Shown here one piece after another: positions 8,363 through 60,984 of a stretch of DNA of 64,000 nt. Made by a program: the position numbers and the translations under genes. Numbering within the stretch: the first letter of the stretch is position 1; every line of letters begins with the position of its first letter. Source of the DNA: Candidatus Dadabacteria bacterium (GTDB taxonomy: Bacteria; Desulfobacterota_D; UBA1144; Nemesobacterales; CSP1-2); NCBI GenBank assembly GCA_963805855.1, contig CAWDVW010000002.1, positions 96,001 to 160,000 on the forward strand, written 5' to 3'. Below the pieces are notes generated by a model. The model made no database searches, was not told where the DNA came from, and saw only the letters and a program-made list of their open reading frames with translations.

Positions 8363-9405
8363 TATTCCTCACTCAACCTGGTTTCGTTTTTTATACCATA
8401 ACTCGAGAGGATCTGTGATCTAATCTTTTCTGAAACCTCAGCATTCTCCTTTAAAAAAGCTCTGGCGTTCTCCCTCCCCTGACCCAGTCTATCATCATTG
8501 TAAGAAAACCAGGTACCACTCTTATCAATCACCTTTAATTTAGAACCGATATCCACTAGCTCACCTTCATGAGAAATACCACTTCCAAATAGTATATCAA
8601 ACTCGGCATCTCTGAAAGGGGGTGCTACCTTGTTTTTTACGACTTTAGCCCTCACTCTGTTTCCAGAAACCTCTTCCCCATCCTTTATAGAACCGATCCT
8701 TCTCACTTCTATTCTGACAGATGCATAGAATCTTAACGCCGTACCTCCGGTTGTTGTCTCGGGATTCATGTAAGACGGGACTCCGATTCTCATACGGGTC
8801 TGGTTAACAAATATGACTATCGTGTTTGATCTGCTAACATTAGCTGTGATTTTTCTCAAGGCTTGAGACATGAGTCTCGCCTGGAGTCCGACATGGGAAT
8901 CTCCCATCTCCCCCTCTATTTCAGCTCTCGGAGTAAGCGCTGCAACCGAATCAAGAACTATGAGATCCACTGCTCCACTCCTTATGAGCGTGTCAACTAT
9001 CTCGAGTGCCTGTTCTCCAAAATCCGGCTGGGATATTAGAAGATCATCTACTTTTACGCCCAGCTTTGCTGCGTAATGAGGGTCAAGAGCGTGTTCGGCA
9101 TCGACAAAAGCCGCGATGCCGCCGAGTTTTTGCGATTGCGCCAGGGCATGAAGAGCAAGAGTTGTCTTCCCTGAAGACTCTGGTCCAAATATTTCTACCA
9201 TTCGACCCCTTGGGAGACCTCCAACACCGAGAGCCAGATCCAATCCAATGGAACCAGTCGGGATTACAGATATCTCAGGAAGCGGTGAATCTGAACCTAA
9301 GCGCATTATGGAACCCCGACCGAACTGCTTCTCAATCGATGAGATGGCGAGCTCTATCGCTTTGTCCTTATTGTTCATTTCCTTTAGGGATGCTTCTTTA
9401 GCCAT
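8362..9405 (-). CDS. recA: Recombinase A
   Basis: [49 protein letters not shown]. Confidence 0.99.
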
Positions 9406-9422
9406 ATAAGATATACTTCGAA

Positions 9423-10664
9423 TTATACACCATTTGAAATAAATTTTCTAATCAAATCGAGTGCAGCTTCTGAAGATAAGATTTTTATTTCCTCCCTTGT
9501 TCCTCGAAATTGACACCTGTGAGAGAATGTCCCTCTGTTCTTACACGAGATCCCTATAAAAACAGTGCCGACCGGCTTTTCGGAAGAACCTCCGGTCGGC
9601 CCGGCAATTCCAGATATCCCTACTCCCAAATCCGTATTTGCAAGTTTCCTTACTCCCTCTGCCATCGATTGTACAACTTCGGCACTAACAGCTCCTTTGG
9701 ATTCAATCAATATGTTATCTACGCCAAGTACATCTACCTTAGACTCATTACTATAAGAGACTACACCCCTTTCAAAATACTCAGAGCTCCCTGGAACATT
9801 TGTAATTCTATGTGCTAAAAGTCCTCCAGTGCATGACTCAGCTATTGCAAGTGTAAGCCCTTTCTGTTTTAATATCTCCCCCACCACTTGCTCCAGCTCC
9901 TCTCCTTTTGTTGAAAAGACATAATCGCCAATCCGTCTCGAGACCTCTCTTTCAATCCAATCCAGAAGGTCACGAGCCACTTCATCTCTATCAGCTTGAG
10001 CCGAAATCCTCAAATGAATCTCGGGGAAATGAGATCTATAACCTATATAAATACCATCTCTAACAATTCCTTGAAGTTTTTCGGCAACCTCAGACTCTCT
10101 TAATCCAAACGTTTTTACCAGCATGGTTCTAATATTGGGCCGATCTATGCTTCTACTATCCAGCTCAGGTATTACGTACTTGTCGATCATGGACCTAAAC
10201 TCTTTAGGTACCCCGGGTAGAAAGAAAAATACACTACCGGACCTCTCGTATCGGAAACCGGGTGCCGTTCCCCAGAAATTTTTTAGAACCTCTGACCCGC
10301 GGGGCAAATATGCCTGCTTTTTATTGATTTCTGACAACTGTCTGCCACGCTCTCTAAAATTCTGTTCTAACATCTCCAGTGCAAGATGATTAAGCTCGAG
10401 TTCTACTCCAAAATATATCGACGCAGCCCCTGCGCTTAAATCGTCAGGGGTGGGACCTAGCCCACCTGAAACTATAATAGCTTGAGCCCTGTTTTCCGCA
10501 TTGCTGAAGGCCTGCATCAGATCTTCTTCGTCATCTCCAACAGTAGTATGGAACTTAAGATCCAAGCCCATGGCGGAAAGCCTATCGGCTGCCCACCGGA
10601 AATTTGTGTCCAGTGTCAGCCCGCTCATCAACTCATCACCTGTAGTAATAATCTCTATTTTCAT
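9423..10664 (-). CDS. cinA: Competence/damage-inducible protein A (MoCF-like domain + NMN deamidase domain)
   Basis: [46 protein letters not shown]; directly upstream of recA. Confidence 0.96.
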
Positions 10665-10727
10665 CCAAATACACTTTAATGATTAAGTTAAGGCTAAATT
10701 CTTCACGTCGATATCATTACAGTTTAT

Positions 10728-11180
10728 TTATCCTGACACTCTGACAAATATTTGAAGTAATATATTCGCATAAATCCCAGCAAGCACATCGTCCGCTACA
10801 ATGCCCAAACCGCCCGAGAGCTTTTCCGACATTCTTATCGGAGGAGGTTTTAAAATATCAAAAAATCTGAACAACAAAAAACCCATTGCAATATTAATCA
10901 TATTCGGAGGGATCAAAATCATTGTAACCAAAAAACCGCAGACCTCATCTATCACTATGCTATTCGGGTCTGAATCCCCTAGTCTTATCCTGGCAATTTC
11001 AGAAACCCAAACTGAAAATATTATTAATGCGATAATAAAAAAAAGATAGAACAGATTTGAAAAACCAGAAATGACATAATACAGAATTACTGCACCAAGA
11101 GTGCCAACTGTTCCCGGAGCGACCGGTGAATAGCCTAGATAAAAGAAGGATGAGATTAATATTGAAAGCCGCTCTTTCAC
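10728..11180 (-). CDS. pgpA: Phosphatidylglycerophosphatase A
   Basis: APGTVGT, DP..IVIDEV.G, FRFFDILKP.PI, GIVADDVLAG. Confidence 0.95.
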   Translation of the reverse strand: MKERLSILISSFFYLGYSPVAPGTVGTLGAVILYYVISGFSNLFYLFFIIALIIFSVWVSEIARIRLGDSDPNSIVIDEVCGFLVTMILIPPNMINIAMGFLLFRFFDILKPPPIRMSEKLSGGLGIVADDVLAGIYANILLQIFVRVSG

Positions 11181-11672
11181 CTATGCGATTAACCCTTCAA
11201 GCCTAAGAAGCTTCTTTTTTATTTCAATACCGGAAGAATAACCTCCGAGCCCCCTCGACGAAACGACCCTGTGGCAGGGGACAATTATCGGTATCGGATT
11301 TGCGCCAACTGCATTCCCCACAGCCCTTGCTGAGTTTGGCTTCCCTATTCTCTTTGCTAATTCATTGTACGAGATAACCTGTCCGTAGGGTATTTGCATC
11401 AACCCCTTCCAGACTGAAACCTGAAAAGGCGTACCCACTAATGCAACCGGATTGACTTTGAAACGTTTAAGACGGCCATCTAGGTATAACTCTAACTCCT
11501 TCGCCGAATCTTCCGCTCGCCCGCCTTCAACCAGTAATTTTTCGTTTAAATCCTTTTTAAAACCTATAAACCTCTTTTTTCCAAAAATTAGATTTGTTAT
11601 GCCTTCCTTTCCACTAATGATGAAGATATCTCCGACCGATGTGCTAATATTCGAATAACTTACTATGTTCAT
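11181..11672 (-). CDS. ogt: Methylated-DNA--protein-cysteine methyltransferase
   Basis: GTPFQ..VW..L..IPYG, ARAVG.A.G.NP, active-site PCHRV. Confidence 0.95.
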   Translation of the reverse strand: MNIVSYSNISTSVGDIFIISGKEGITNLIFGKKRFIGFKKDLNEKLLVEGGRAEDSAKELELYLDGRLKRFKVNPVALVGTPFQVSVWKGLMQIPYGQVISYNELAKRIGKPNSARAVGNAVGANPIPIIVPCHRVVSSRGLGGYSSGIEIKKKLLRLEGLIA

Positions 11673-11866
11673 TGATTTGCCTATCGCGAAACAGTAATCA
11701 TAACTGACAAAGCGCTGTCAATATACAATGAGGATTCAAATGTTGGGGGAAATTTATATCCTTGAATTTCATCATAAAGTGCGTAGAATCTGTATGGCTA
11801 AAATGTATTCTAAACAAATTCCGAGCAAGATTAAACTTGAGGTTGTCACCGGTAGGAGGATATGTT

Positions 11867-12676
11867 TTGACAACTGACGACACTCTTATGGATCAGTGGG
11901 CGCTCATCCTTGGCGCATCAAGTGGTTTTGGTGAAGCAACGAGCCTGGAACTGGCCTCCGCTGGATTGAACATATTTGGCGTTCATCTCGACAGAAGATC
12001 CACATTACCCAAAGTAGAAGAGATAAAAAATCAAATAAAAGATATGGGAAGAAAGGCTGTTTTTTTTAACATAAATGCCGCCGATGCAGAAAAAAGAAAA
12101 GAGACAATAGACGCTATAGAAAAAAATATAAGAGAAAGCGGGGATCACAGGGGTATCAAAGTGGTTCTTCATTCGTTGGCCTTTGGCACTTTAAAATCAT
12201 ATATAGCCTCTGATCAAAAAGATATGCTGACCGACTCAAATATGAACATGACTCTAGACGTGATGGCTCACTCCCTGGTCTATTGGGTTCAGGAACTTGT
12301 TCTAAGAAATCTGGTTATGGAGGGCGGAAGGATATTCGCCATGACAAGTGCCGGAGGGCACAGGATCTGGCCTACCTACGGTGCTGTATCAGCTTCCAAG
12401 GCAGCGCTGGAATCCCACATAAGGCAGCTTGCCGTAGAGCTCGCTCCACTAAAGATAACCGCAAATGCGATCCAGGCCGGAGTGACAGAAACACCGGCCC
12501 TCAAAAAAATTCCCGGAAACGAAATAATCACGAAGCATGCCCTTCAGGTAAATCCTGGAAGAAGGCTCACAACTACGAAGGATGTCGCTCAAGCTATAGC
12601 TGCCCTGTCGGTGTCAGCCACTCATTGGATTACGGGGAATGTGATAAGAGTAGACGGTGGTGAAGACCTGATTTAA
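11867..12676 (+). CDS. SDR-family oxidoreductase, FabL-like enoyl-ACP reductase
   Basis: GASSGFG Rossmann motif, Y-x6-K (YGAVSASK), VDGGE C-terminus. Start placed at in-frame TTG 11867, 6 nt after AGGAGGA (ORF track extends to 11762). Confidence 0.8.
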   Translation: MTTDDTLMDQWALILGASSGFGEATSLELASAGLNIFGVHLDRRSTLPKVEEIKNQIKDMGRKAVFFNINAADAEKRKETIDAIEKNIRESGDHRGIKVVLHSLAFGTLKSYIASDQKDMLTDSNMNMTLDVMAHSLVYWVQELVLRNLVMEGGRIFAMTSAGGHRIWPTYGAVSASKAALESHIRQLAVELAPLKITANAIQAGVTETPALKKIPGNEIITKHALQVNPGRRLTTTKDVAQAIAALSVSATHWITGNVIRVDGGEDLI

Positions 12677-20089: not shown

Positions 20090-21154
20090 TCAAATCAATC
20101 CATAAGCATAACTCTCCTTATTCTTCCACACGTATCTTATCCTGTTCAATAACTTCTTGGCGATCCGAACTATCGCTTTCTGCTTGGTCATCCGCCTGAT
20201 CAATTGACTAAACACATGCCCCAAAGCCGGATCTTCTCGTATCGCTACCCACGCTGCCTCTATCAGTAAGTACCGTAAATACCGGTTACGCCGAAAGCTG
20301 AGCCCCAGAGTGCTCTCCCTCTCCCCAGAACTACTTACCGATGGCACTAACCCCGCATAACTAGCAAGATCGTCTATACTCCTGAACCGACTCATATCCA
20401 TCAGTTCCCCATATAATGTCATCGCTGTTACAAAACCAACCCCTGGCACACTACGCAGATTCTTTACCTCTTCCCCAAACCCGTATTCCCGATAATACTT
20501 CCGCACCAACTTCACTACCTCTGCTAAACGCCTTCGATGACTTTCTAGCTCCTCGAGACATAGCCTAAGATAATCCCTACCCATCCCGTATGAAAACTCT
20601 AATGTCTTTAACCACCTTATAAATCCCCCAGACCAGTGACCAATCTCATCATGGCGCGGTATGACATAACCATAGAATGCTAAATACCCCTTGATCCGAT
20701 TCTTAAGCCGAGTTTGCGACTGTACCACCTTAAATCTGAGCCTGCACAATGATCGCAATTGTTGGTGAAATTCATCCGGTACATATATCCCTCTCAATGA
20801 CCCATTCTCTAGCTCTCGTGCCAGCTTACGGCTATCCACCTTGTCGGTCTTTGTCGATTTCTCCTTCTGGGTACTAGGCACATCTGCCGGATTGATTACT
20901 ATATTGTTAAACCCGTACCTCTTTAACTCCCGATCAATCCAGTACCCACAGAATCCTGCTTCATACACACTGTGATAGTTTCCTCCCGGATAACGCTTGT
21001 GCATATATCCGTACAGTTGCTCCGGTGATGGATCCATGGAGAAAGTCTTTAACTCCATGCCGTTAGTCCTGACTGTTACTTTCCAGCTCTTCTTATGCAC
21101 ATCTATGCCTAGAAAAAAATCTTGATTTGTGTAATCTATACTTTGTCTATTCAT
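20090..21154 (-). CDS. IS110-family DEDD recombinase/transposase
   Basis: GIDVHK (D), VYEAG (E), KTDKVDSRKLA (D,D) RuvC-like tetrad; SVPGVG HhH; YAGLVPSVSSSG with Tnp-domain serine; 354 aa, intact. Confidence 0.96.
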   Translation of the reverse strand: MNRQSIDYTNQDFFLGIDVHKKSWKVTVRTNGMELKTFSMDPSPEQLYGYMHKRYPGGNYHSVYEAGFCGYWIDRELKRYGFNNIVINPADVPSTQKEKSTKTDKVDSRKLARELENGSLRGIYVPDEFHQQLRSLCRLRFKVVQSQTRLKNRIKGYLAFYGYVIPRHDEIGHWSGGFIRWLKTLEFSYGMGRDYLRLCLEELESHRRRLAEVVKLVRKYYREYGFGEEVKNLRSVPGVGFVTAMTLYGELMDMSRFRSIDDLASYAGLVPSVSSSGERESTLGLSFRRNRYLRYLLIEAAWVAIREDPALGHVFSQLIRRMTKQKAIVRIAKKLLNRIRYVWKNKESYAYGLI

Positions 21155-23525: not shown

Positions 23526-25157
23526 TTAATTAGTTTTGCGAAACAATCTATTATTTTCCCTTAACAAGTTCAACACCGGGGGGAAAATTTCTTTTTTATA
23601 TCCACTCATCAATGAAATCTGAATCCAGTTCCTTTTCATTAGGTACCGACTTCTGTAGCTTAAAAGATATCCTTTCTCTTCGAGAAGTCGCCCCAAGTTC
23701 TCTGAACTAATCCAACGTGGCAAATCGATAGTAATCAGGGCAGGAGAGGAATGCTCATCCGCGGCTAAAATATTGAAACCAATCTTTCGTAACTCACCTC
23801 TAAGCCAAGATGAGATTTTTTCTAATTCTCTGTATCTATCTTCTGAGTCGAATCTCTCGAGTGCTTTCTTAAGCGCGGATATCAAGTTCGAAGATATTGT
23901 AAAAGGAATACCTTCTGAAATTGAATATAGGCCAATGTCAAGGTATCTCGGTATGTCTTTCGAAAGTGGGAGTATCTCGTGATTATAAAAAACCATCGAC
24001 AAGCCCGGGAAAGCCCCGAGTCCTTTCCCACTGACTCCTGATGCAAGGTAAATACCATTTAGATCGATCGGTATCGTTCCTATGGAGCTAACGCAATCCA
24101 AACAGAGACGTATACCCCTATCGAGGCATAGTGATTTCAACATCTCTAAATCATTTAGAATCCCTGTTGATGTCTCACAGTGGACAGCCCATAACCACTG
24201 GATATCGGGCTCTTGATCCAACAATCTAAAAATTTGATCGCGATCGAAAGCCATTCCCCAGTCAATCTCAAGAGTCCTGAAATGAAGCCCAAACCGACGC
24301 GCATGATCTATTAACCTGTTTCCGAATTCACCATTACTAAGAACCAAACCCGTCTTCAAATTTGAAGACAACTGTGCAGCTATACAATCATTTGCAAGAG
24401 AACCAGACCCCATAAGTATTTCAACGCTACGAGAATGTACTAGGCCGCAAAGAAGGTCCTTCGTTTGTTTAAAATCTTTCACGAAGCTCTCTGAACGATG
24501 TGAAACAGGAATCTCATTAAAGGATTCATGTACAACCTGATCTATATGAACCGGACCCGGAAGTAAATTGACTAAACTCTCGCTTAAGGAATTTTCACGA
24601 AAATCGTCAGAAAAGAGTCTAGTCCGGTTCCTAAATTCTTTATATGCATTAAAAGTGATGTACATGGGTTGAAACATGGCTACATCATTCCCGACCAGCG
24701 GACCAAACGGAACGAAACCGAGATGCTTATAAAGCTTCATTTGATTTAATGTTGCCGAAATAATAGCTAAATCGTATCCATGGGTCTGGACCTCCTCGAT
24801 CAAGGTAGTGAGCAAACCTTTCAGAACATGCCCTCTTCGGTATCCCTTTTCTATCGATAACAATCGAATTTCAACCATAGAACTGCATTCTGGAAGGTAA
24901 GAATCAAGATTCTTCAACTTTTGATCAAGCGAAAAAGGTCTCCTATCCTTGATGGAAACCATAGCTATAAGCCTGTTATCACGCAGACAGATGATGTATT
25001 TATTGTCTCGATGGAATTTGTCTATCAGAGTTCTTTCAGGATTTGCTTCATGCTGCGGTATTTCTTCCACAAAAGTTCTGTAGTTGAGTTTATGTATTTG
25101 CTCAAACTCCCATTCTTCGGTTGCGATCCTGAATATAAGGTGAGGTCTTGGAATCAT
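23526..25157 (-). CDS. Fusion: N-terminal GNAT-type acyltransferase + class V PLP-dependent aminotransferase
   Basis: N-terminal EIRLLSIEKGYR..LYKHLGF..FG (GNAT); C-terminal LLPGP, NGEFG.R, HCETSTG, DCVSS, SGKGL (PLP lysine). Confidence 0.82.
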   Translation of the reverse strand: MIPRPHLIFRIATEEWEFEQIHKLNYRTFVEEIPQHEANPERTLIDKFHRDNKYIICLRDNRLIAMVSIKDRRPFSLDQKLKNLDSYLPECSSMVEIRLLSIEKGYRRGHVLKGLLTTLIEEVQTHGYDLAIISATLNQMKLYKHLGFVPFGPLVGNDVAMFQPMYITFNAYKEFRNRTRLFSDDFRENSLSESLVNLLPGPVHIDQVVHESFNEIPVSHRSESFVKDFKQTKDLLCGLVHSRSVEILMGSGSLANDCIAAQLSSNLKTGLVLSNGEFGNRLIDHARRFGLHFRTLEIDWGMAFDRDQIFRLLDQEPDIQWLWAVHCETSTGILNDLEMLKSLCLDRGIRLCLDCVSSIGTIPIDLNGIYLASGVSGKGLGAFPGLSMVFYNHEILPLSKDIPRYLDIGLYSISEGIPFTISSNLISALKKALERFDSEDRYRELEKISSWLRGELRKIGFNILAADEHSSPALITIDLPRWISSENLGRLLEEKGYLLSYRSRYLMKRNWIQISLMSGYKKEIFPPVLNLLRENNRLFRKTN

Positions 25158-31484: not shown

Positions 31485-31685
31485 TTAGTTTTCAGGGTTC
31501 ATAGGAATAATAATCCAGCCTACAATATAAGCTATTACAAAAGGTAAAACTCCCGTTACTAATCCGATGAACACAAGTCCGAGCCTTATAAGCGTCGGAT
31601 CAATTTCGAACATTTCACCCAGGCCGCCACATATGCCGGCGATCATTTTATCCCTTTCTGACCGATAGATTCTCCTCATCGCCAT
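31485..31685 (-). CDS. PspC-domain protein
   Basis: YRS..DKMIAGICGGLGE.F.IDPTLIR, AYIVGWIIIP. Confidence 0.9.
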   Translation of the reverse strand: MAMRRIYRSERDKMIAGICGGLGEMFEIDPTLIRLGLVFIGLVTGVLPFVIAYIVGWIIIPMNPEN

Positions 31686-31855: not shown

Positions 31856-32638
31856 ATGAATGAAACTTTATGGAAATTAACTGTTGGTAATAATCCCCTC
31901 GTGGCAGCTGCTATTCACAACGGTCATGACACAAGAGAAGAGATTAGGGAACTGCTTGCACTGGATGAGTCTTCAAGACTTCGCGAAGAAGATCCCTTCA
32001 CAGGAGATTGGACCGTAGTAGCTGAGACGCGAATCGTAGCCTTTCGATCGAGATTTGAGGTAGATCTGAACCGTCCGCGGGAAAAAGCAGTTTACATTCA
32101 CCCGGAAGATGCATGGGGATTGAAAGTATGGAAGAGCAAGCCATCAGATGAATTTGTTCAACGTTCACTGAAAGAATATGATACCTTCTACGAAGAAATG
32201 AAGAATCTATTTTCTGACCTGGTTAGCAAATTCGACCGCTTTATTGTATTTGACCTGCATACCTACAATCACAAACGCAATGGGCCAGAGGGACCGCTAT
32301 CGAACCCTGAGGAAAATCCAGAGGTCAACATTGGTACGGGAACTATGGATCGAAATTTCTGGTCTCCAGTAGTGGATCGATTTATCTCTGATCTTAGGAC
32401 CTTTGATTTTTTAGGGAGAAACCTCGACGTACGGGAGAATGTTAGGTTTCGCGGTGGAAATTTCCCGCGATGGATCCATGAAAACTTCCCAAAAAAGGGA
32501 TGCGCCTTGGCAATCGAATTCAAAAAATTTTTCATGGATGAGTGGACAGGTATCCCTGACCGTATACAGCTAGCTGCAATTAGTGATGCCTTAAAATCGA
32601 CAGTGCCGGGAATCTTTGAGGAGCTTGAGAAATTTTGA
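31856..32638 (+). CDS. N-formylglutamate amidohydrolase-family protein
   Basis: AIHNGH, REEDPFT, SRFEVDLNR, DLHTYN, N.GTG, ENVRFRGG, ALAIEFKK; GAGGAG RBS. Confidence 0.85.
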   Translation: MNETLWKLTVGNNPLVAAAIHNGHDTREEIRELLALDESSRLREEDPFTGDWTVVAETRIVAFRSRFEVDLNRPREKAVYIHPEDAWGLKVWKSKPSDEFVQRSLKEYDTFYEEMKNLFSDLVSKFDRFIVFDLHTYNHKRNGPEGPLSNPEENPEVNIGTGTMDRNFWSPVVDRFISDLRTFDFLGRNLDVRENVRFRGGNFPRWIHENFPKKGCALAIEFKKFFMDEWTGIPDRIQLAAISDALKSTVPGIFEELEKF

Positions 32639-34566
32639 CCGGTCTAATAGCACCCAAGACAAACATAATTACCGATCATTTTATTAACTCGATATGCGAA
32701 CGGTTGGCGAACAACAAGCCTGTTCGTCGTAAACTACCTCTCAATGGTCGTATTCACATTGACAGGCAGCTTCCTTTCTTATGTGTCTATCGAATCCCAC
32801 CTGCTTGGACTGACAAAGGAACAAGACGTCTCGTATTGGGAGAAGCTTCATACTTGATCGCCAGCGGGGATCGTCAATTTTATCCAAGCTTAACAAAACT
32901 TCTGTCAAAAGTGGCACGAACGCTCTTCTCTGAGTTTGGAGCGTTTCTTATAATTGAGATATGGTCCTCAAAACATAGCTCAAATGACACCGACTCCGAG
33001 CTGGCAAGGTTAAAACCGGGTTTTAGGATATTTACAAGCGAACTCAAGTTGGGAACCCTAATGTCCACCATTGAAAGCCTGGAGGCTGGCCTCAGAAAAG
33101 TTCGAATACTCAAACAGCCAGCAACAGTTGATGTGATTGACAAAAGAAGTGAGCGCCCTCCAAGTCTTTATCCTATCTTAAGCAAACTGGAAGCCAGCGA
33201 GATTGGATGCAAAATAATTGGAATTGAGGTCAAGCCATTTTATAGAAGTATGAAAACGGGTGAGACTTATCCCTTAGTACTTCAAACTCTCCATCACGGC
33301 CTGGCAAGGGCCTTGAAACAGGCATTCTTTGATTTCACAAGAACCAACACCACACGTCGTCCTAGACACTACCATGCTATGGGTCGTACAGCAGTAGTAA
33401 AATCAGTGAGAGACGTAGACCATCAATTAGCCGGTATTAGCAATTCTTTTGACTTCTTGCTTCAGGTTACTCCTATAAATTCTGAACAAGCATGGTCTGT
33501 TTTTAGAAGGAAGAAATATGAGCGGGAGCCGACATTTTATTACAGAGCTCGGCCCTTTGACCCCGATATATTGAAACGAAAACTTTATTCTATTCTTATC
33601 GAGAGAGTCGAGGACCCCACTCTTGCACAACTCTTCAAAGATAAAAGAGCTGAACTTGACAGACAAATTTCAATGATTACGGACCGTGCGACAAAACGAT
33701 TTCTCTTTGGTAGTATGCAACTTTATGGCGGTGTAGACGACCAACTTTCGAAATTCGCAAACATCATCCTAAATCGCATACCACCAAGAAGCCGCGAAAA
33801 ATCGTCAGGGAGAATTTTAGATGCGGAGGAATTTGCAAGATACGCTTCTATTGAAATCGAATACTACCGTCGAATTTACCCGGAATTTGCTGCCAAGGTA
33901 CAGATCAGAGATGATATATCCCCTGGACTTATGGTCTCTCGGGGTCACTTGCTCGTCGGCAGTAAAACCGGTATCCCTCCGGCTCGAGTTGAGGCCCTAA
34001 TACAGCATGAGATTGGTACCCATCTTCTAACATACTACAATGGCAAGGCCCAGCCATTCCACCAGCTCTATACTGGCTTACCTGGCTATGAGGAACTCCA
34101 AGAAGGTCTTGCGGTAATCTCAGAGTATCTCGTAGGGGGATTGAGCAAGCCGCGTCTAAGAATCCTTGCGGGTCGAGTGATAGCGGTGGGGTGTTTAGTA
34201 GAAGGTGCAACGTTTGTTGATACCTTTAAAAAGCTTTACATCGACTATGGTTTTGAGCAACGAACCGCTTTTATCATTACCTTAAGGGTTTACAGGGGTG
34301 GAGGCTTAACTAAAGATGCGATATATCTCAGGGGCCTTAAAAACCTGCTGGATTACCTGAAACTCGGCGGCGAGCTAGAGCCCCTGTTTGTCGGCAAGGT
34401 TTCGGCAAATCATCTCCCCATTATCGAAGAGCTTCAATATCGTAAGGTGCTTAAATCTGCTCCACTGAGACCCCGATATTTAACTGATCCAAAGGCAAGT
34501 GAACGGCTTGAGCGTTTACGAGGCGGCCTTTCACTGCTAGATCTTATTGAAAGGAGGAAAACATAA
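32635..34566 (+). CDS. DUF1704 / QEGLA-motif zinc metallopeptidase (MATCAP-like) with long N-terminal extension
   Basis: HEIGTH (HExxxH), NG..QP, QEGLA, RVYRGGG.TKD.IYLRG; TTG start overlaps the upstream stop. Confidence 0.85.
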   Translation: MTGLIAPKTNIITDHFINSICERLANNKPVRRKLPLNGRIHIDRQLPFLCVYRIPPAWTDKGTRRLVLGEASYLIASGDRQFYPSLTKLLSKVARTLFSEFGAFLIIEIWSSKHSSNDTDSELARLKPGFRIFTSELKLGTLMSTIESLEAGLRKVRILKQPATVDVIDKRSERPPSLYPILSKLEASEIGCKIIGIEVKPFYRSMKTGETYPLVLQTLHHGLARALKQAFFDFTRTNTTRRPRHYHAMGRTAVVKSVRDVDHQLAGISNSFDFLLQVTPINSEQAWSVFRRKKYEREPTFYYRARPFDPDILKRKLYSILIERVEDPTLAQLFKDKRAELDRQISMITDRATKRFLFGSMQLYGGVDDQLSKFANIILNRIPPRSREKSSGRILDAEEFARYASIEIEYYRRIYPEFAAKVQIRDDISPGLMVSRGHLLVGSKTGIPPARVEALIQHEIGTHLLTYYNGKAQPFHQLYTGLPGYEELQEGLAVISEYLVGGLSKPRLRILAGRVIAVGCLVEGATFVDTFKKLYIDYGFEQRTAFIITLRVYRGGGLTKDAIYLRGLKNLLDYLKLGGELEPLFVGKVSANHLPIIEELQYRKVLKSAPLRPRYLTDPKASERLERLRGGLSLLDLIERRKT

Positions 34567-35612
34567 TGAGAATCGGATTTGTCGTTAATGACATAATGAC
34601 TGAAGAGGCTGGATATACCACAACGCGGTTGGCAATAGCAGCCAAAAACCGCGGTCATGAAGCCTGGGTGATGGGTGTTGCCGATTTAGCCTACGATCCC
34701 GACGAGAAAATCCACGCCAGAGCCAGATCGGCTCCAAAGCAAAATTACAAATCCAGGGAGATTTACTTATCTGAACTTCAGGGCAAAAAGGCAAAGTCTG
34801 AGCGAATAACAGTAGACGATCTGGATGTTCTGATGCTTCGGAACGATCCGTCGTCTGACGCCATTTCTCGCGCCTGGGCGCAAAACGCTGGAATCATATT
34901 CGGAAGGGTTGCCATGAGGCATGGTGTAATAGTTCTAAACGATCCTAACGGCTTGTCAAAGGCAATGAACAAGATGTATTTTCAACTATTTCCTGCCGAG
35001 GTAAGGCCACAAACATTGATTACTAGAGATGGGGACGAGATCAAGAAATTTGTCAAAGATCTCGGCGGTTCCGCTGTTCTTAAACCCTTACAGGGCTCTG
35101 GTGGTGCAGGAGTTTTTCTGGTTAGACCCGAAGATCGCCCAAACCTAAATCAAATGATCGAGTCACTTAATCGAGACGGATATGTAATCGCACAGGAATA
35201 TCTACCCGCAGCAATAGAAGGCGACATCCGTCTCTTTGTGATGAACGGCCGCCCACTTCGTTATAAGGGTAAATACGCTGCATTCAGACGCGTACGAACC
35301 GGCGACGATATGAGGAGCAATATTCATGCTGGAGGAAGGAAGCGAGAAGCAGAGGTAACCAAAACACATCTTAAATTGGCGGAAATGGTTCGGCCTAAAC
35401 TTGTTCAGGATGGGATGTTTTTGGTCGGCCTGGACATAGTAGGTGATAAGTTGATGGAAATAAACGTATTCAGTCCGGGCGGGCTAGGCAGTGCCCAGAC
35501 CTTTGAAAGGGTGAATTTCAATAACGCCGTGATCGAGGCCTTAGAGCGAAAGGTAGACTATATGAAATTCTATCGTCGCAATTTCGACAATGTTGAGATG
35601 GCAACCCTTTGA
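34566..35612 (+). CDS. Glutathione-synthetase-like ATP-grasp ligase
   Basis: LRNDP, KPLQGSGG.GVF, QEYLP..GDIR, RSNIHAGG, GLDIVGDKLMEINVFSPGG; TAATG overlap with the upstream gene. Confidence 0.88.
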   Translation: MRIGFVVNDIMTEEAGYTTTRLAIAAKNRGHEAWVMGVADLAYDPDEKIHARARSAPKQNYKSREIYLSELQGKKAKSERITVDDLDVLMLRNDPSSDAISRAWAQNAGIIFGRVAMRHGVIVLNDPNGLSKAMNKMYFQLFPAEVRPQTLITRDGDEIKKFVKDLGGSAVLKPLQGSGGAGVFLVRPEDRPNLNQMIESLNRDGYVIAQEYLPAAIEGDIRLFVMNGRPLRYKGKYAAFRRVRTGDDMRSNIHAGGRKREAEVTKTHLKLAEMVRPKLVQDGMFLVGLDIVGDKLMEINVFSPGGLGSAQTFERVNFNNAVIEALERKVDYMKFYRRNFDNVEMATL

Positions 35613-43912: not shown

Positions 43913-45040
43913 TCAGGGAAGAAAATAAAAAGCAACGGCAAGTATAAGATAAACTGCCAACAATTGAACCCCTTCCATCCAGTTCGATTCACCATCATGG
44001 GCTATCAGACTGAGAATCCAGACGGAAATGCCGACCGAAACAACCTCCAAGTTAGTAAAGATAAGATCCATAGGCTCACCAAAAAGATAGCTCACAAATA
44101 CAAGTATTGGTGCAACAAAAAGTGCTATCTGGATACTAGAGCCAATTGCGATGTTCACTGCGAGGTCCATCTTATTTTTATAAGCGGCAAGTATGGCTGT
44201 GCTATGCTCAGCAGCATTCCCTATTATGGCAACGACAATCACACCTATAAAAACGTCCGTCATTCCGAATGTTTCGGCAGTAACTTCGACAGCCCCAACA
44301 AGGAATTCACTCAGGAGCGCAATCCCCACCACTGCTAGGATCAATATCACGATGGACTTATTCTTTCCCCACTCAGGACGCTCTTCTTCAATCAGGGCAG
44401 CCGTACCCAAATAGAGATGCCTGTGGGTGTAAAGTGAAAAAATGAGGCTAAGAAAGTAAGTTATAAAAAGAACTATTGCAATTAATAAACTCAGCTCGTG
44501 TTCAATCGCTGGTTGCCCTATAACAATCATATGAAAAAGAGCTGGTATTACCAGTCCGATAGCACTCAATGCCAATAAAGTTGAACCAACGCTGGATGCT
44601 GTTCTATTAAAAACCTGTTTATCATATCGAAAACCCCCTACTAGGACACTCGCTCCAAGAACCAGGAGAATATTCCCGATGATGGAACCTGTCAAAGACG
44701 CTTTGACTATATCGAATAATCCCCGGCGCAGCGCGATTAGAGCAATAATCAATTCCGCCGCGTTACCAAATGTAGCATTCAACAAACCGCCCAAACCGGC
44801 ACCAGCGACCTTGGCTAATTCTTCTGTAGCTTTACCCATGAGTCCGGCAAGTGGAATAATTCCCAACGCGGATGTTGCGAAAATCCAAATTTTATCTACG
44901 TGCAAAAACTCCAAAGCAATACTAATTGGAATGAACACCAATAAGACGCTAAGTGGTTCAATTTTATATTCGCCAAGTTTCACTAGATTATCCCAGAGAT
45001 CGGTTTTGGAATCATCACGACACCTAAAACTAGCAAGCAA
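43913..45040 (-). CDS. cax: Calcium/proton exchanger (CaCA family)
   Basis: Alpha repeats [12 protein letters not shown] / GSIIGN.LL and GNAAEH / [17 protein letters not shown]; true start probably nearer 44983. Confidence 0.93.
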
Positions 45041-56095: not shown

Positions 56096-58768
56096 TTATA
56101 TATTAGGTTTTTTGTCTTGCAAGCAATACTCACCACATTGCTGTATGAGCTTGGCAACGACACCAGTCCATCCTGTTTGATGGCTTGCGCCTAATCCAGC
56201 CCCGTCATCACCATGAAAATATTCATTAAACAGGATAAGATCTCTCCAGTTAGGATCAGTTTGAAACCTTTCGGTTCCTCCAAAAACGGGCCTCCTCCCC
56301 GTCGAGTCCTCGAGAAATATCTTCATGAGCCTATGAGAGAGTTCAGTAGCAACCTCCCACAATGTCATTTCATTACCTGAGCCAGTCGGACATTCCACCT
56401 TGAATTCATCGCCTAAATAATAATGAAATTTTTGAAGTGATTCGATAAGCAGATAATTCACTGGAAACCATACCGGCCCCCTCCAGTTGGAATTGCCTCC
56501 AAACAGACCGGCATTAGATTCTGCAGGTTCATAGTCTAACCTATATTCAGCGCCATCAATGTCGAATATATAAGGATGATCTTTATGAATCTTTGAAACA
56601 GATCTGATACCATAGGGGCTCAATAGCCTTGATTCGTCAAGCATCAGTCGTAAGATGCGCCTTAATTTATGCTCATCAACTATTGATAGAAGTCTCCGTC
56701 GAATAGCCCCGCTCCTCTCCTTTATTGAACAGCCTTGAAGGAGGTCGGATCGATTTTCTAAAAACCAGTTAACCCTCCTTTGAAATCCAGGGAGCTTTGA
56801 TAATACATCGGATTCTATCGTCATAACAGCGAAAAGGGGTATGATACCCACCATGGAATGAATCCTTATCGGTATGGTATTTCCATTCGGCAGATTTATG
56901 ATGTCATAGTAAAAACCATCCTTTTCATCCCATAGGCCCTGATCCTGACTCCCCATTTTATTAATCGCATCAGCAATGTATAGAAAATGCTCGAAAAATT
57001 TGCTCGCTATATCTTCATAACTGGGATTGTCTTTTGAAAGCTCAAGTGCAATTGTAAGCATATTCAGGCAATACATCCCCATCCAGCTCGTTCCATCTGT
57101 TTGTTCAAGAAATCCACCTGTCGGAAGTTCCGCGCTTCTGTCAAAAATTCCGATATTGTCCAATCCGAGAAAACCACCCTCAAAGACATTATTTCCTTTA
57201 GCATCCTTTCGATTAACCCACCATGTGAAATTAAGCAGCAACTTTTGAAATACCCTTTCAAGAAAAAGGATATCCCGATTACCAAAAATCTTTTTCTCGA
57301 TCTGATATACCCTCCACGCAGCCCAGGCATGCACAGGTGGGTTCACATCACTAAAAGCCCATTCGTAAGCGGGAATCTGACCGTTCGGGTGCATATACCA
57401 CTCCCTGGTAAGCAGAATCAGTTGACGCTTTGCAAATTCAGGGTCAATCAGAGCAAGGGGTATCGTATGAAATGCCAGGTCCCAGGCTGCGAACCATGGA
57501 TACTCCCATTTATCTGGCATTGACAGAATATCGTCATTATAGAGATGAATCCACTCATGATTTCTTCCCCTTTTTCGCTCTTCGGGAGGCGGAGGTCCTG
57601 CAGGATCACCGATAAGCCAATCTTCAACCACGTAATTATAGAATTGCTTATTCCAGAGCATCCCGGCTAACGCCTGCCTGTACACCTTCCTCATATCATC
57701 CGTCAAGGGAAATGGGCAAATTCGTTTATAAAATTCATCCGCCTCATTTTTACGTACCTCAAAGATAGCCTCGAAAACCTCTCCAAGCGGATCGACAAGA
57801 CCATCTGAATTGCTAAGCCTGATCCTTAAAGCCTTTGATTCGCCCGATTCAAGTGTAAGCAAATAATGCGCTGAACCCTTTGTTCCAACCTCTTCTGAGT
57901 TAACAACGCTTCTCCTTCCCTCAACAATATAATCGTTTATACCATCTTTCAGGTAAGAACATCTATTACTCACACCAAACAATTTTTCATAATTTGTTTC
58001 GTTCTCGGTAAAGATTAATTCATCGGGAGTCCCACAATATAACCACATTTTACCGAGAGATTCGTGAGATGCTTCAATTACGCTAAATTGACCGGTAGAT
58101 TTCGTTGACCTTAGCAAGGGTTTATTCGAGGATTTATGCCAGGACCACGAATTACGAAACCAGAGTGTCGGCAGTATATGCAATTTTGCTTCTTCAGGCC
58201 CTCGATTTATAACGCTTATTCTTATGAGAATGTCCTCTGGCGAATTTTTGGAATATTCTACAAAAACGTCAAAGTATCTGTTATCATCAAATAAACCTGT
58301 ATCAAGAAGCTCATATTCAAAATCTCCCCTGCCTCTACCCCTATTTACCTCTACAAGTTGTCTATACGGATAAGATCCATGCGGATATTTGTACAGATAC
58401 TTCATGTAGGAATGTGTGGGAGTATTATCCAGATAAAAGTAATATTCTTTCACATCTTCCCCATGGTTACCTTCACTCCCAGTCAGACCAAATAACCTTT
58501 CCTTAAGGATCGGATCACTCCCATTCCACAGCGCGATGGCAAAACATAGCCTTTGATGGTTGTCGGAAATACCAGCTATTCCGTCCTCCCCCCACCTGTA
58601 AGCCCTCGAGCGCGCTTGATCGTGCGAAAAATAGTCCCATGCCGTTCCGTAGGGACTATAATCCTCTCTAACCGTCCCCCACTGGCGTTCGCTCAGGTAT
58701 GGACCCCATCTTCTCCAGTGAGCCTTGCGCAACCGGTCTTCCTCTAATCTCCTTTCTTCAGCGGTCAT
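56096..58768 (-). CDS. GH63 / MGH1-like glucosidase
   Basis: [64 protein letters not shown]; start at MTAEE after GGAGG. Confidence 0.9.
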
Positions 58769-59035
58769 TAGTAATATATCCTCCAACTGAAAGGTGTTAC
58801 TTAAAGTTAGATTCTTTAAAACCACATCAGCTCAAGCGCAATACAACCGTAACTTCTCATAATCACTATTAGATAATCATGGAATACAATCTGGTCTCGA
58901 TGAGCTCCCAATTATTAATTTCATAGGATAACGTTAATGCAGAAATAAGCGGGCAATTTCAAAGGATAGCTTAAGTTACGGGGTTACAAATACAAAAAAC
59001 ATATTCAAATATTTTGTATGAAATTATTCGTGAAA

Positions 59036-60229: not shown

Positions 60230-60399
60230 GTTATGAAATTATGTCATATGCTTTGTAATTTAAAAGAGACAAAAAAACCAGAATGGCAACTTCTGATATT
60301 ATGAAACTTTCAAACGGAGTCAATCTAGAGCCATGCTTACGGCTATTTCGCTGTTGTGATGAGACATATTGATCTTTACCATTTTTTTATCTCAAGAAA

Positions 60400-60984
60400 T
60401 CAAGGGGTCTCCTTTTTACTAGACAATTCTCCTTCAACCAATTCGCAAATGATATGTGCCACGGTGATATGTAATTCCTGTATCCTGGGTGTTGATTTCG
60501 AAGGAATCTTGACTAAACAATCAACAGTATCCCCTATTTTACCTACCTCGGAACCCGTCAATAAAATTGTTTTGAGCCCTGCAGATTTTGCCACTTCTAA
60601 CGCACTAACAACATTTTTTGATTTTCCACTTGTGGATATCCCCCAAGCCACATCGCCTTTCCTTCCAAGCGCTTCAATTTGGCGAGAGAATATATTGCTA
60701 AATGAACGATCATTACCTATTGACGTAATTAGCGACGTATCTGTAGTGAGAGCAATTGCCGAAAACGCTTCCCTATCTTTGGAAAACCTATTGACAAACT
60801 CCGAAGCAATGTGCTGTGCGTCTGCAGCACTTCCTCCATTTCCAAATATTAAGACTTTAGCCCCCGACTTGATTGATTTTTGAATAATTTTGGTAGCCTG
60901 AGCTATATCATTTACAGATTCCTTTGCGAAACGAAGTTTCAGCTCAGCGCTTTCCCTCAGTCTTGAGATTATGTGCTCTTTCAT
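60400..60984 (-). CDS. gmhA: Phosphoheptose isomerase (SIS domain)
   Basis: FGNGGSAADAQH.A.E, TSIGND, GISTSG.S.NV, TPRIQE.H. Confidence 0.95.
   Translation of the reverse strand: MKEHIISRLRESAELKLRFAKESVNDIAQATKIIQKSIKSGAKVLIFGNGGSAADAQHIASEFVNRFSKDREAFSAIALTTDTSLITSIGNDRSFSNIFSRQIEALGRKGDVAWGISTSGKSKNVVSALEVAKSAGLKTILLTGSEVGKIGDTVDCLVKIPSKSTPRIQELHITVAHIICELVEGELSSKKETP

Follow-up and report, generated by a model that had tools for sequence, protein, structure and literature searches.

Why would a bacterium couple the translation of an ATP-grasp ligase to that of two hydrolases that might undo its work? The question is raised by three genes at 31856..35612 (+) in a 64,000-nt stretch of contig CAWDVW010000002.1 (GCA_963805855.1; positions 96,001-160,000 of the forward strand), hereafter the window. 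They encode a protein of the N-formylglutamate-amidohydrolase (FGase) family, a basic metalloprotease related to the tubulin-trimming enzyme MATCAP, and a ligase that resembles the glutathione synthetase GshB and is named as such in public records. We find that the three genes are a conserved functional unit. We tentatively propose, at somewhat less than an even chance, that this unit is an ATP-driven system in which acidic residues, probably glutamate, are added to peptides or protein tails and trimmed off again, and that this activity is tied to osmotic and cation homeostasis. The features of the operon are as follows (aa, amino acids; pI, isoelectric point; ORF, open reading frame).

31856..32638 (+): FGase-family (N-formylglutamate-amidohydrolase-like) metallo-amidohydrolase, 260 aa, ATG start, acidic (pI 5.3); ORF, Pfam PF05013
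32635-32638 (+): TTGA, the TTG start of gene 2 overlapping the TGA stop of gene 1; sequence
32635..34566 (+): QEGLA/MATCAP two-domain basic protein, 643 aa, TTG start, net charge about +32; ORF, TIGR02421, PF08014
32635..33420 (+): N-domain of the peptidase, residues 1-262, putative degenerate FGase-like fold with 'EIW' instead of the 'DxH' metal motif; hhalign, BLASTP
33502..34512 (+): MATCAP/DUF1704 gluzincin catalytic domain, residues 290-626; Pfam PF08014
34006-34023 (+): HEIGTH motif, peptidase residues 458-463; sequence
34099-34113 (+): QEGLA motif, peptidase residues 489-493; sequence
34552-34557 (+): AGGAGG ribosome-binding site before gene 3; sequence
34564-34568 (+): TAATG, the TAA stop of gene 2 overlapping the ATG start of gene 3; sequence
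34566..35612 (+): ATP-grasp ligase of the PRK12458 GshB-like subfamily, 348 aa, ATG start, conserved C-terminal tail; NF009110
35472-35483 (+): SPGG motif, ligase residues 303-306; sequence

A conserved three-gene unit

A search with the peptidase, in which 8000 candidates were examined at a threshold of E <= 0.001, showed that the full-length 643-aa architecture is common, with at least 4889 relatives, the best 120 of which share 54-100% identity with the window protein over 95-100% of the query. When genomes were scanned, one per species, 593 of 601 pattern matches proved to be relatives; the locus counts below refer to the 80 best loci. These loci span Chloroflexota, Planctomycetota, Acidobacteriota, Bacteroidota, Calditrichota, Ignavibacteria, Campylobacterota, Myxococcota, Gemmatimonadota, Poribacteria and others. 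With the three window proteins as tblastn queries, all three genes were present in 73 of the 80 loci. Clustering of ORFs, which missed two divergent or split copies found by tblastn, placed all three in 71 loci, and in 64 they are adjacent, on one strand and in the window's order. The FGase-like gene is absent by tblastn from seven loci (L031, L040, L046, L072, L074, L076 and L080), two of which (L031 and L040) lie on contigs that start at the peptidase gene, and the ligase gene is absent from L046 and L072 only. The arrangement is therefore not due to chance, and the three genes are a conserved functional unit. An earlier note on this DNA, made from its letters alone, had proposed a reading that depended on the genes being conserved together, and they are.

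We also considered the trio as a window-specific accident of gene order; presence in 73 and colinearity in 64 of the 80 loci rule this out.

The unit is found on plasmids and chromids as well. By tblastn the peptidase was detected on 129 records of such replicons, of which Sinorhizobium accounts for 79, and the trio occurs together and in the same order in Shinella, Aminobacter, S. meliloti Ak57 and, by tblastn, S. meliloti 1021 pSymB, all replicons of Rhizobiaceae or Phyllobacteriaceae. PGAP names the three proteins N-formylglutamate amidohydrolase, QEGLA motif protein and glutathione synthase. Clustering of flanking ORFs across the 80 loci revealed no fourth gene conserved with the trio, and the conserved small ORFs found beside the operon were only shadows of the core genes and ORFs specific to Pontibacter, which argues that there is no dedicated precursor peptide. 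Rfam searches found no riboswitch in nine loci or upstream of the operon, where only sub-threshold snoRNA noise was returned, and a scan for promoters and terminators gave none above shuffled background.

Some loci carry two or three tandem ligase copies (L043, at 8920-12155, and L049, L024, L074, L066, L020 and L031), and a second peptidase-ligase pair is present in L031 and L049. The tandem copies could be initiator and elongator enzymes, or could add different residues. On the chromid of Pseudoalteromonas sp. HL-AS1 (L088, 6007-7287), a lone 426-aa QEGLA protein is encoded without ligase or FGase genes; its gene adjoins betI-betB-betA and a BCCT transporter gene (glycine-betaine osmoprotection).

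Within the window, the gene calls agree with the earlier note on several counts. The three ORFs and both overlaps that it took as signs of translational coupling are present, and its protein identities (FGase fold, 643-aa HEIGTH/QEGLA metalloprotease, GshB-like ligase) are matched by Pfam and NCBIfam. The TTG start of the peptidase is credible because relatives begin at the same alignment column and an identical 643-aa protein (P0001) is present in the protein collection, and the HEIGTH, QEGLA and SPGG motifs are invariant in alignments of relatives. The trio had also been described as the only plus-strand block in ~42 kb, and among ORFs of at least 150 aa it is indeed the sole credible plus-strand coding block between 20090 and 62793. 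The four other plus-strand ORFs of that size (40172, 43841, 44679 and 60356) each overlap a minus-strand ORF of 194-951 aa, and three of these minus-strand ORFs have strong Pfam domains; the strand is less clear at 60356, where the minus-strand ORF (60400..60984) exceeds its plus-strand rival (175 aa) by 19 aa only. Finally, the note had seen neither gshA nor hut genes in the window, and Pfam finds no gshA-type or hutH/hutU/hutI-type domain in the 45 ORFs scanned (those of at least 150 aa and one shorter).

The ligase and its two hydrolase partners

If the ligase were a conventional glutathione synthetase, it would be expected to score as one. It matches the Pfam families GSH-S_ATP (E 4e-50) and GSH-S_N (E 3e-13), and its 489.4 bits on the subfamily model PRK12458/NF009110 (cutoff 408), on which the operon ligases of S. 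meliloti pSymB and Photobacterium score 501 and 488, place it in that subfamily. It does not reach either GshB equivalog cutoff (TIGR01380, 201.9 vs 299.05; NF003573, 216.9 vs 272), whereas a control run with E. coli GshB gave 464 and 496 on the same models. The cutoff of the RimK family is not reached either (TIGR00768, 87.7 vs 143.4), and the function of the ligase may be RimK-like despite this score. A search of 1.84 billion 50%-cluster representatives yielded 4219 relatives of the ligase, 150 of which were listed. The 100 of these with 314-358 aa and a near full-length match were scored on NCBIfam; the other 50 fall outside 300-365 aa or match in part (11 are full-length with a partial match). 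None of the 100 scored representatives reached a GshB equivalog cutoff (best, 223), PRK12458 was the best model for every one of them, and 5 exceed its cutoff. The operon ligase of Photobacterium sp. DA100 scores above the NF003573 cutoff (291.7 vs 272) and below that of TIGR01380. In a FastTree phylogeny of 185 sequences rooted on E. coli RimK, 63 operon-adjacent ligases, 10 extra locus copies and 18 representatives form one clade (support 0.978). E. coli GshB branches outside this clade, at the base of the 183 other non-outgroup sequences; the test is limited, E. coli GshB being the sole bona fide GshB in the tree. Scores and tree thus agree with the earlier view that this is not a standard GshB.

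The nearest solved structure is nevertheless that of E. coli GshB (1gsa, E 3.2e-40), with RimK matching at E 8.5e-9. Both GshB and RimK can be aligned to the ligase at the K-P-L, G-S-G-G, G-D-x-R, R-x-N and D...E-x-N positions, none of which varies among 26 relatives, and an 'R-x-D-P' stretch aligns with GshB. At two places the alignment separates the families: the ligase has 'MRSNIHAGG' and 'SPGG', RimK 'FRSNLHRGG' and 'SPGL', and GshB 'TRGNLAAGG' and 'SPTC', so that SPGG does stand where GshB has SPT, as had been noticed from the sequence, and the 'RSNIHAGG' and 'SPGG' motifs appear to resemble RimK more than GshB. The alignment to GshB also contains two insertions and a conserved 20-aa C-terminal tail. 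The extreme C-terminus (35553-35612, residues ~330-348) has the consensus ...Y.RNF.N..MATL and is absent from E. coli GshB; given the carboxypeptidase partner, is this conserved free end a docking motif or a self-substrate? Of the three proteins the ligase varies least: its identity to the window protein across phyla is 52-78%, while the peptidase reaches 45-56% and the FGase-like protein 49-66%. The ligase is mildly basic (median pI 8.83, n=72). The name 'glutathione synthase', which it bears in the four annotated public records inspected, is probably wrong, and the glutathione annotation, including the Gene Ontology (GO) term 'glutathione biosynthetic process [IEA]' of the ligase in L083 (7815-8861), is probably a propagated mis-annotation.

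The peptidase matches MATCAP PF08014 over residues 290-626 (E 3.9e-89; 299.6 bits vs a cutoff of 27) and the 'QEGLA' model TIGR02421 (344.3 bits vs 338.65). A single-sequence search of the PDB gave no relevant relative, but a profile of 23 peptidase relatives matches human MATCAP (7z5g, E 1.7e-5) across HExxH and EGLA, as expected from the earlier assignment of DUF1704. H458, E459, H463 and E490 are invariant, and in score and in possession of HExxH and the Glu the protein is a member of the QEGLA/MATCAP family. It is strongly basic (median pI 9.73 and median net charge +22, n=76; +32 for the window protein, in which both domains are basic), and this charge suggests an enzyme built to bind polyanions. 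The eukaryotic members MATCAP/TMCP are metallocarboxypeptidases that cut C-terminal Tyr and Glu and shorten polyglutamate chains, according to passages of PMC10499314. Activity on C-terminal Tyr/Glu is known from these eukaryotic members only, and for the bacterial peptidase it is predicted by analogy.

The ~250-aa N-terminal extension of the peptidase had been suggested to select the substrate. Our comparisons lead to a different description, in which the extension appears to be a degenerate FGase-like domain without the metal-binding D-x-H motif. An alignment of 72 N-domains matched one of 56 FGase-like proteins with an hhalign probability of 79.9% (E 1.4e-5, 170 columns), compared with 0.1% for a C-domain control, and smaller alignments gave the same register (probability 23%, E 9e-4). 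Decisive, though indirect, is the match of the window N-domain to the FGase domain of a Photobacterium fusion protein, seen by BLASTP (E 1e-7) and by profile (probability 95.5%, E 1.3e-8). Counting against this assignment, none of 26 N-domains has a direct Pfam FGase match; an ESM Atlas search with the N-domain returned no usable match. The domain is probably catalytically dead, because 'EIWS' replaces the 'DIHS'/'DLHS' of active FGase domains to which it aligns, and the N-terminal His motif is missing as well. No peptidase form longer than 1126 aa was found in the C-domain search, which is weak evidence.

The separate FGase-like protein, by comparison, looks catalytically intact, because residues of catalytic type are invariant. 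It matches PF05013 (65.5 bits vs a cutoff of 28.9, E 9.7e-18), no NCBIfam model matches it, and the residues invariant in 20 relatives include H21, E44, D46, R66, D70, N72, R73, D133 and H135, whose roles are assigned by inference and not from a structure. Neither a single-sequence nor a profile search of the PDB gave a relevant relative (a GpsB fragment at E 0.035 is noise). Thus the protein has the Pfam domain and the conserved metal and substrate residues of a HutG-type enzyme, but not the hut context, as no hutH/U/I-type domains occur in the scanned window ORFs or among recurrent neighbours. It is acidic (median pI 5.55, n=57). In some lineages the domains are joined in one chain: Pfam identifies FGase-MATCAP fusions in Vibrio sp. 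HDW18 (663 aa, FGase E 2e-11) and Photobacterium sp. DA100 (662 aa, E 3e-14), and an FGase-ligase fusion of 624 aa (P0121), whose 5-member cluster is spread over 7 contigs. Such fusions speak for physical cooperation between the three activities.

Ion-transport and osmotic context

The recurrent clusters flanking the 80 loci are MscS-type channels, MgtE, CorA, CNNM/CorC and a sigma-54 activator. With hidden Markov models built from these clusters, an MscS, MgtE, CorA or CNNM gene was found within 7 kb of the operon in 33 of the 80 loci (MscS in 24, MgtE in 15, CorA in 11 and CNNM in 9). Such genes are concentrated close to the operon, with 23 of them lying within 500 bp, or 3.1 per 10 kb vs 0.4-0.5 farther out, and in one locus (L029) an MgtE gene stands between the peptidase and ligase genes. 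The loci concerned belong to roughly ten phyla, going by their record titles, and the positions and orientations of the transporter genes vary.

Expression data from Photobacterium damselae point in a similar direction. There, RS17020 ('glutathione synthase', 557979-559007) overlaps RS17025 (QEGLA, 558991-560973, fusion-sized), and the two are up 38.4-fold and 27.5-fold, respectively, at 1% vs 3% NaCl; RimK is up 52-fold in the same comparison, and the authors interpret RS17020 as GshB and its induction as glutathione synthesis (PMC10308900). In Vibrionaceae a DUF413 (maoP) gene (L087, 4876-5235; P. damselae RS17015) immediately precedes the QEGLA gene in the former case and the ligase-QEGLA pair in the latter, and RS17015 is co-induced 9-fold at low salt.

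The surroundings of the operon in the window are compatible-solute metabolism. An alpha-glucan/trehalose cluster on the minus strand adjoins the operon, with an MGH1-like hydrolase beyond:

35636-58825 (-): alpha-glucan/trehalose cluster with amylase, MalQ (GH77), TreY-like 951-aa protein, GlgX-like, TreZ-like, GlgB, TreS-maltokinase fusion (1110 aa) and GlgE
43913-45040 (-): Na/Ca-exchanger family protein in the trehalose cluster
56096-58825 (-): MGH1-like (mannosylglycerate-hydrolase-type) GH63 protein

A divergent gene in the 450-bp gap upstream of the operon (31485-31685, minus strand) encodes a 66-aa PspC-domain protein (Pfam E 1e-20) of the small membrane, envelope-stress type. At its left end, the long minus-strand run has an IS110-family transposase gene (20090-21154, minus strand), and a 543-aa protein (23526-25157, minus strand) has weak matches to GNAT acetyltransferases and class-V aminotransferases, an unusual pairing. 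Genes for nirK, an NnrS-family protein and a Crp/Fnr regulator are found within a few kb of the trio on a plasmid of Shinella sp. PSBB067 (L082, 5171-13785). Such nitric-oxide-related context occurs in one of the five plasmid records with inspectable annotation, and it is of interest given the name 'flavohemoglobin expression-modulating'.

A possible cycle of addition and trimming, and its alternatives

By analogy, the ligase family would add an amino acid to a C-terminal carboxylate and the peptidase family would trim acidic C-termini. A ligase together with carboxypeptidase-type hydrolases fits a write/erase or make/degrade cycle, and to that extent the writer/eraser proposal of the earlier note stands; C-terminal tagging, one of the forms it named, is not singled out over synthesis and turnover of a small peptide or polymer. 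In the mechanism that we propose, the ligase would use ATP to join an amino acid, most likely glutamate, onto the free carboxylate of an acidic acceptor, which might be free glutamate, oligo-glutamate or the Glu-rich C-terminal tail of a housekeeping protein. The basic MATCAP-type carboxypeptidase would trim the acidic chains from the C-terminus, and the FGase-like amidohydrolase would cut the last N-acyl-glutamate-type bond; it is placed last because such a bond would be left once trimming has reached the final residue of a chain. Both hydrolases would be exo-acting. The FGase-like N-domain of the peptidase, probably inactive itself, would most likely be a binding or regulatory module. An acidic substrate is proposed because the peptidase is strongly basic, the eukaryotic MATCAP/TMCP enzymes trim Glu, and the ligase motifs are RimK-like. 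By these means the cell could hold glutamate either as the free anion or condensed into a polyanion, or could adjust an acidic tail, in the service of osmotic and Mg2+/cation homeostasis. Condensing glutamate into chains would leave fewer osmotically active anions and counter-ions, and would therefore fit the low-salt induction and the Mg2+-transporter and release-valve neighbours. What the enzymes act on, that glutamate is what the ligase adds, how the two hydrolases share the work and what the system does for the cell are all inferences.

Known systems offer partial parallels. Two products of RimK, free poly-alpha-glutamate and the C-terminal Glu tails of RpsF, are trimmed by RimB, as passages of PMC11957051 describe. 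Like the operon, RimK-RimB (with RimA; S6 glutamylation in Pseudomonas and E. coli) pairs an ATP-grasp ligase with a co-transcribed reversing peptidase, and E. coli RimK has the 'RSN.H.GG' and 'SPG' motifs in common with the window ligase; in contrast, the window ligase is GshB-like and its partners are a MATCAP-type gluzincin and an FGase-type amidohydrolase, whereas RimB is a retropepsin. The same passages describe RloABC of Pseudomonas aeruginosa, an operon required under hypoosmotic stress that encodes an ATP-grasp protein together with a peptidase able to cleave polyglutamate (PMC11957051), a need that parallels the low-salt induction and MscS neighbours of our operon, although RloA is a secreted retropepsin, RloB is a membrane pseudo-transglutaminase, and these enzyme families are unrelated to those of the trio. 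In the tubulin code, TTL/TTLL writers are ATP-grasp ligases, the erasers MATCAP (TMCP1/2, KIAA0895L/KIAA0895) have a peptidase domain homologous to that of the operon, and two eraser classes, MATCAP and CCP, share the work (in the relevant passages of PMC10499314). Bacteria, however, are without such tubulin tails, the operon ligase is not of the TTL family, and the bacterial peptidase has a predicted pseudo-FGase N-domain. E. coli GshB (1gsa) shares fold, domain order and aligned ATP-grasp catalytic residues with the ligase, but lacks its insertions and 20-aa tail and has 'SPTC' for 'SPGG', and the E. coli gshB locus is without operon partners. Likewise, HutG shares PF05013 membership and conserved His/Asp/Glu positions with the FGase-like protein, whose gene has no hut neighbours and, in the 80 loci, is always partnered with those of the ligase and peptidase, and in some lineages is fused to one of them. 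Cyanophycin synthetase, cyanophycinase and isoaspartyl dipeptidase, a polymer synthetase, depolymerase and final dipeptidase that are often co-transcribed, follow a similar operon logic with a different polymer and with hydrolases unrelated to those of the trio.

Several observations weigh against the glutamate-addition cycle. The substrate and the added residue are putative, and by sequence the ligase is far closer to GshB, a single-addition enzyme, than to RimK. The score of the DA100 ligase leaves glutathione-type chemistry possible for the subfamily. Because the ligase is co-translated with its own hydrolases, unregulated enzymes would run a futile cycle. In addition, MscS, MgtE, CorA and CNNM genes are missing from the window and, within 7 kb of the operon, from 47 of the 80 loci; the genomic background of these families, which the observed frequency would far exceed, is estimated from general knowledge at well under 1% of genes and is not a computed control. 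The salinity data concern a distant two-gene variant (the ligase of the DA100 relative is 31% identical to that of the window). Lastly, the effect of PA3697 on fhp expression (PMC8070244), the sole published phenotype for the family, is not accounted for.

Alternatively, the ligase could make a defined di- or tripeptide (an osmolyte, a non-glutathione thiol or a gamma-glutamyl compound) that the hydrolases recycle or degrade, in the manner of the NAGGN operon or of glutathionylspermidine synthetase/amidase. The ligase is GshB-like throughout, including its N-terminal domain, and keeps the 'R-x-D-P' stretch, FGase-family enzymes act by definition on small N-acyl-glutamates, no precursor ORF was found beside the operon, and the osmotic and ion-transport neighbours would fit an osmolyte equally well. 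A precedent is the NAGGN operon, which, in passages of PMC8070244, comprises an ATP-grasp-containing synthase and a peptidase and serves osmoprotection. Nonetheless, a two-domain carboxypeptidase of 643 aa that bears a charge of +22 to +32 would be unusual as an enzyme acting on a tripeptide, and the substrates of its MATCAP relatives are protein tails and polyglutamate chains. The tandem ligase copies and the 52-78% identity of the ligase also suggest a macromolecular or polymeric partner, although neither is decisive, and we regard the small-molecule pathway as possible but on the unlikely side. Closer to the cycle that we propose is dedicated protein tagging, in which the ligase would extend the C-terminus of one conserved protein and the peptidases would erase the extension, a strict counterpart of TTL/TTLL-MATCAP or RimK-RpsF. 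This shares the evidence for an acidic tail, and a ligase that is so much better conserved than its partners would suit a protein target that is itself conserved, but no candidate target is encoded nearby among the recurrent flank clusters or in the small-ORF scan. It is also indistinguishable from free-peptide synthesis, since RimK does both, and it differs from our proposal in substrate exclusivity only; we consider it improbable.

The two remaining explanations are less likely still. The operon could encode a second glutathione synthetase, as annotated, with the peptidases handling glutathione or its precursors, an idea favoured by the PGAP name and GO term, by GshB as the nearest solved structure and by the DA100 score. 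Both equivalog cutoffs, however, are missed by the window ligase and by all 100 scored representatives, E. coli GshB falls outside the clade, and no gshA-type domain is present in the scanned window ORFs or among recurrent neighbours. The host lineages of the operon include Thermodesulfobacteriota, Anaerolineae and Campylobacterota, anaerobic lineages in which, to our knowledge, glutathione is atypical. A glutathione role is thus very improbable. As enzymes of one operon act in series more often than in opposition, the hydrolases could instead release a building block that the ligase re-uses, in sequential salvage or catabolism, or the proteins could be mainly regulators, as the name 'flavohemoglobin expression-modulating' suggests. 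PA3697 is cited, in PMC8070244, as affecting fhp, and the Shinella plasmid copy lies near nirK, the NnrS-family gene and the Crp/Fnr regulator gene. Pfam and NCBIfam, by contrast, find no DNA-binding domain in the trio proteins, no recurrent catabolic neighbours were found among the flank clusters of the 80 loci, and the nitric-oxide-related context is confined to the one plasmid record, making salvage or regulation quite improbable.

The annotated families and the gene order are already visible in public records, and in the literature searched, which did not extend to the amidoligase survey of Iyer et al. 2009, no paper treats the trio as a system. The ligase matches, together with the at least 4889 peptidase relatives, imply that many more genes bear the doubtful name glutathione synthase, through which one transcriptome study, that of P. 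damselae, has already been interpreted. The module also gives the bacterial MATCAP relatives a biochemical context, with a partner ligase, a second hydrolase and fusions, making their function and the origin of eukaryotic MATCAP directly testable. A bolder version of the glutamate-addition cycle, which we hold to be doubtful, is that the operon represents a trans-phylum system of reversible intracellular glutamylation, with a GshB-derived writer and MATCAP and FGase erasers that buffer glutamate, K+ and Mg2+ under salinity change, and that the eukaryotic tubulin detyrosinase MATCAP descends from the bacterial eraser, the pairing of writer and eraser predating tubulin. More directly, the links to Mg2+ transporters, mechanosensitive channels and low salt suggest that osmotic and cation homeostasis has a so far unstudied enzymatic layer, one that sits beside the recently described RimK-RimB and RloABC polyglutamate systems.

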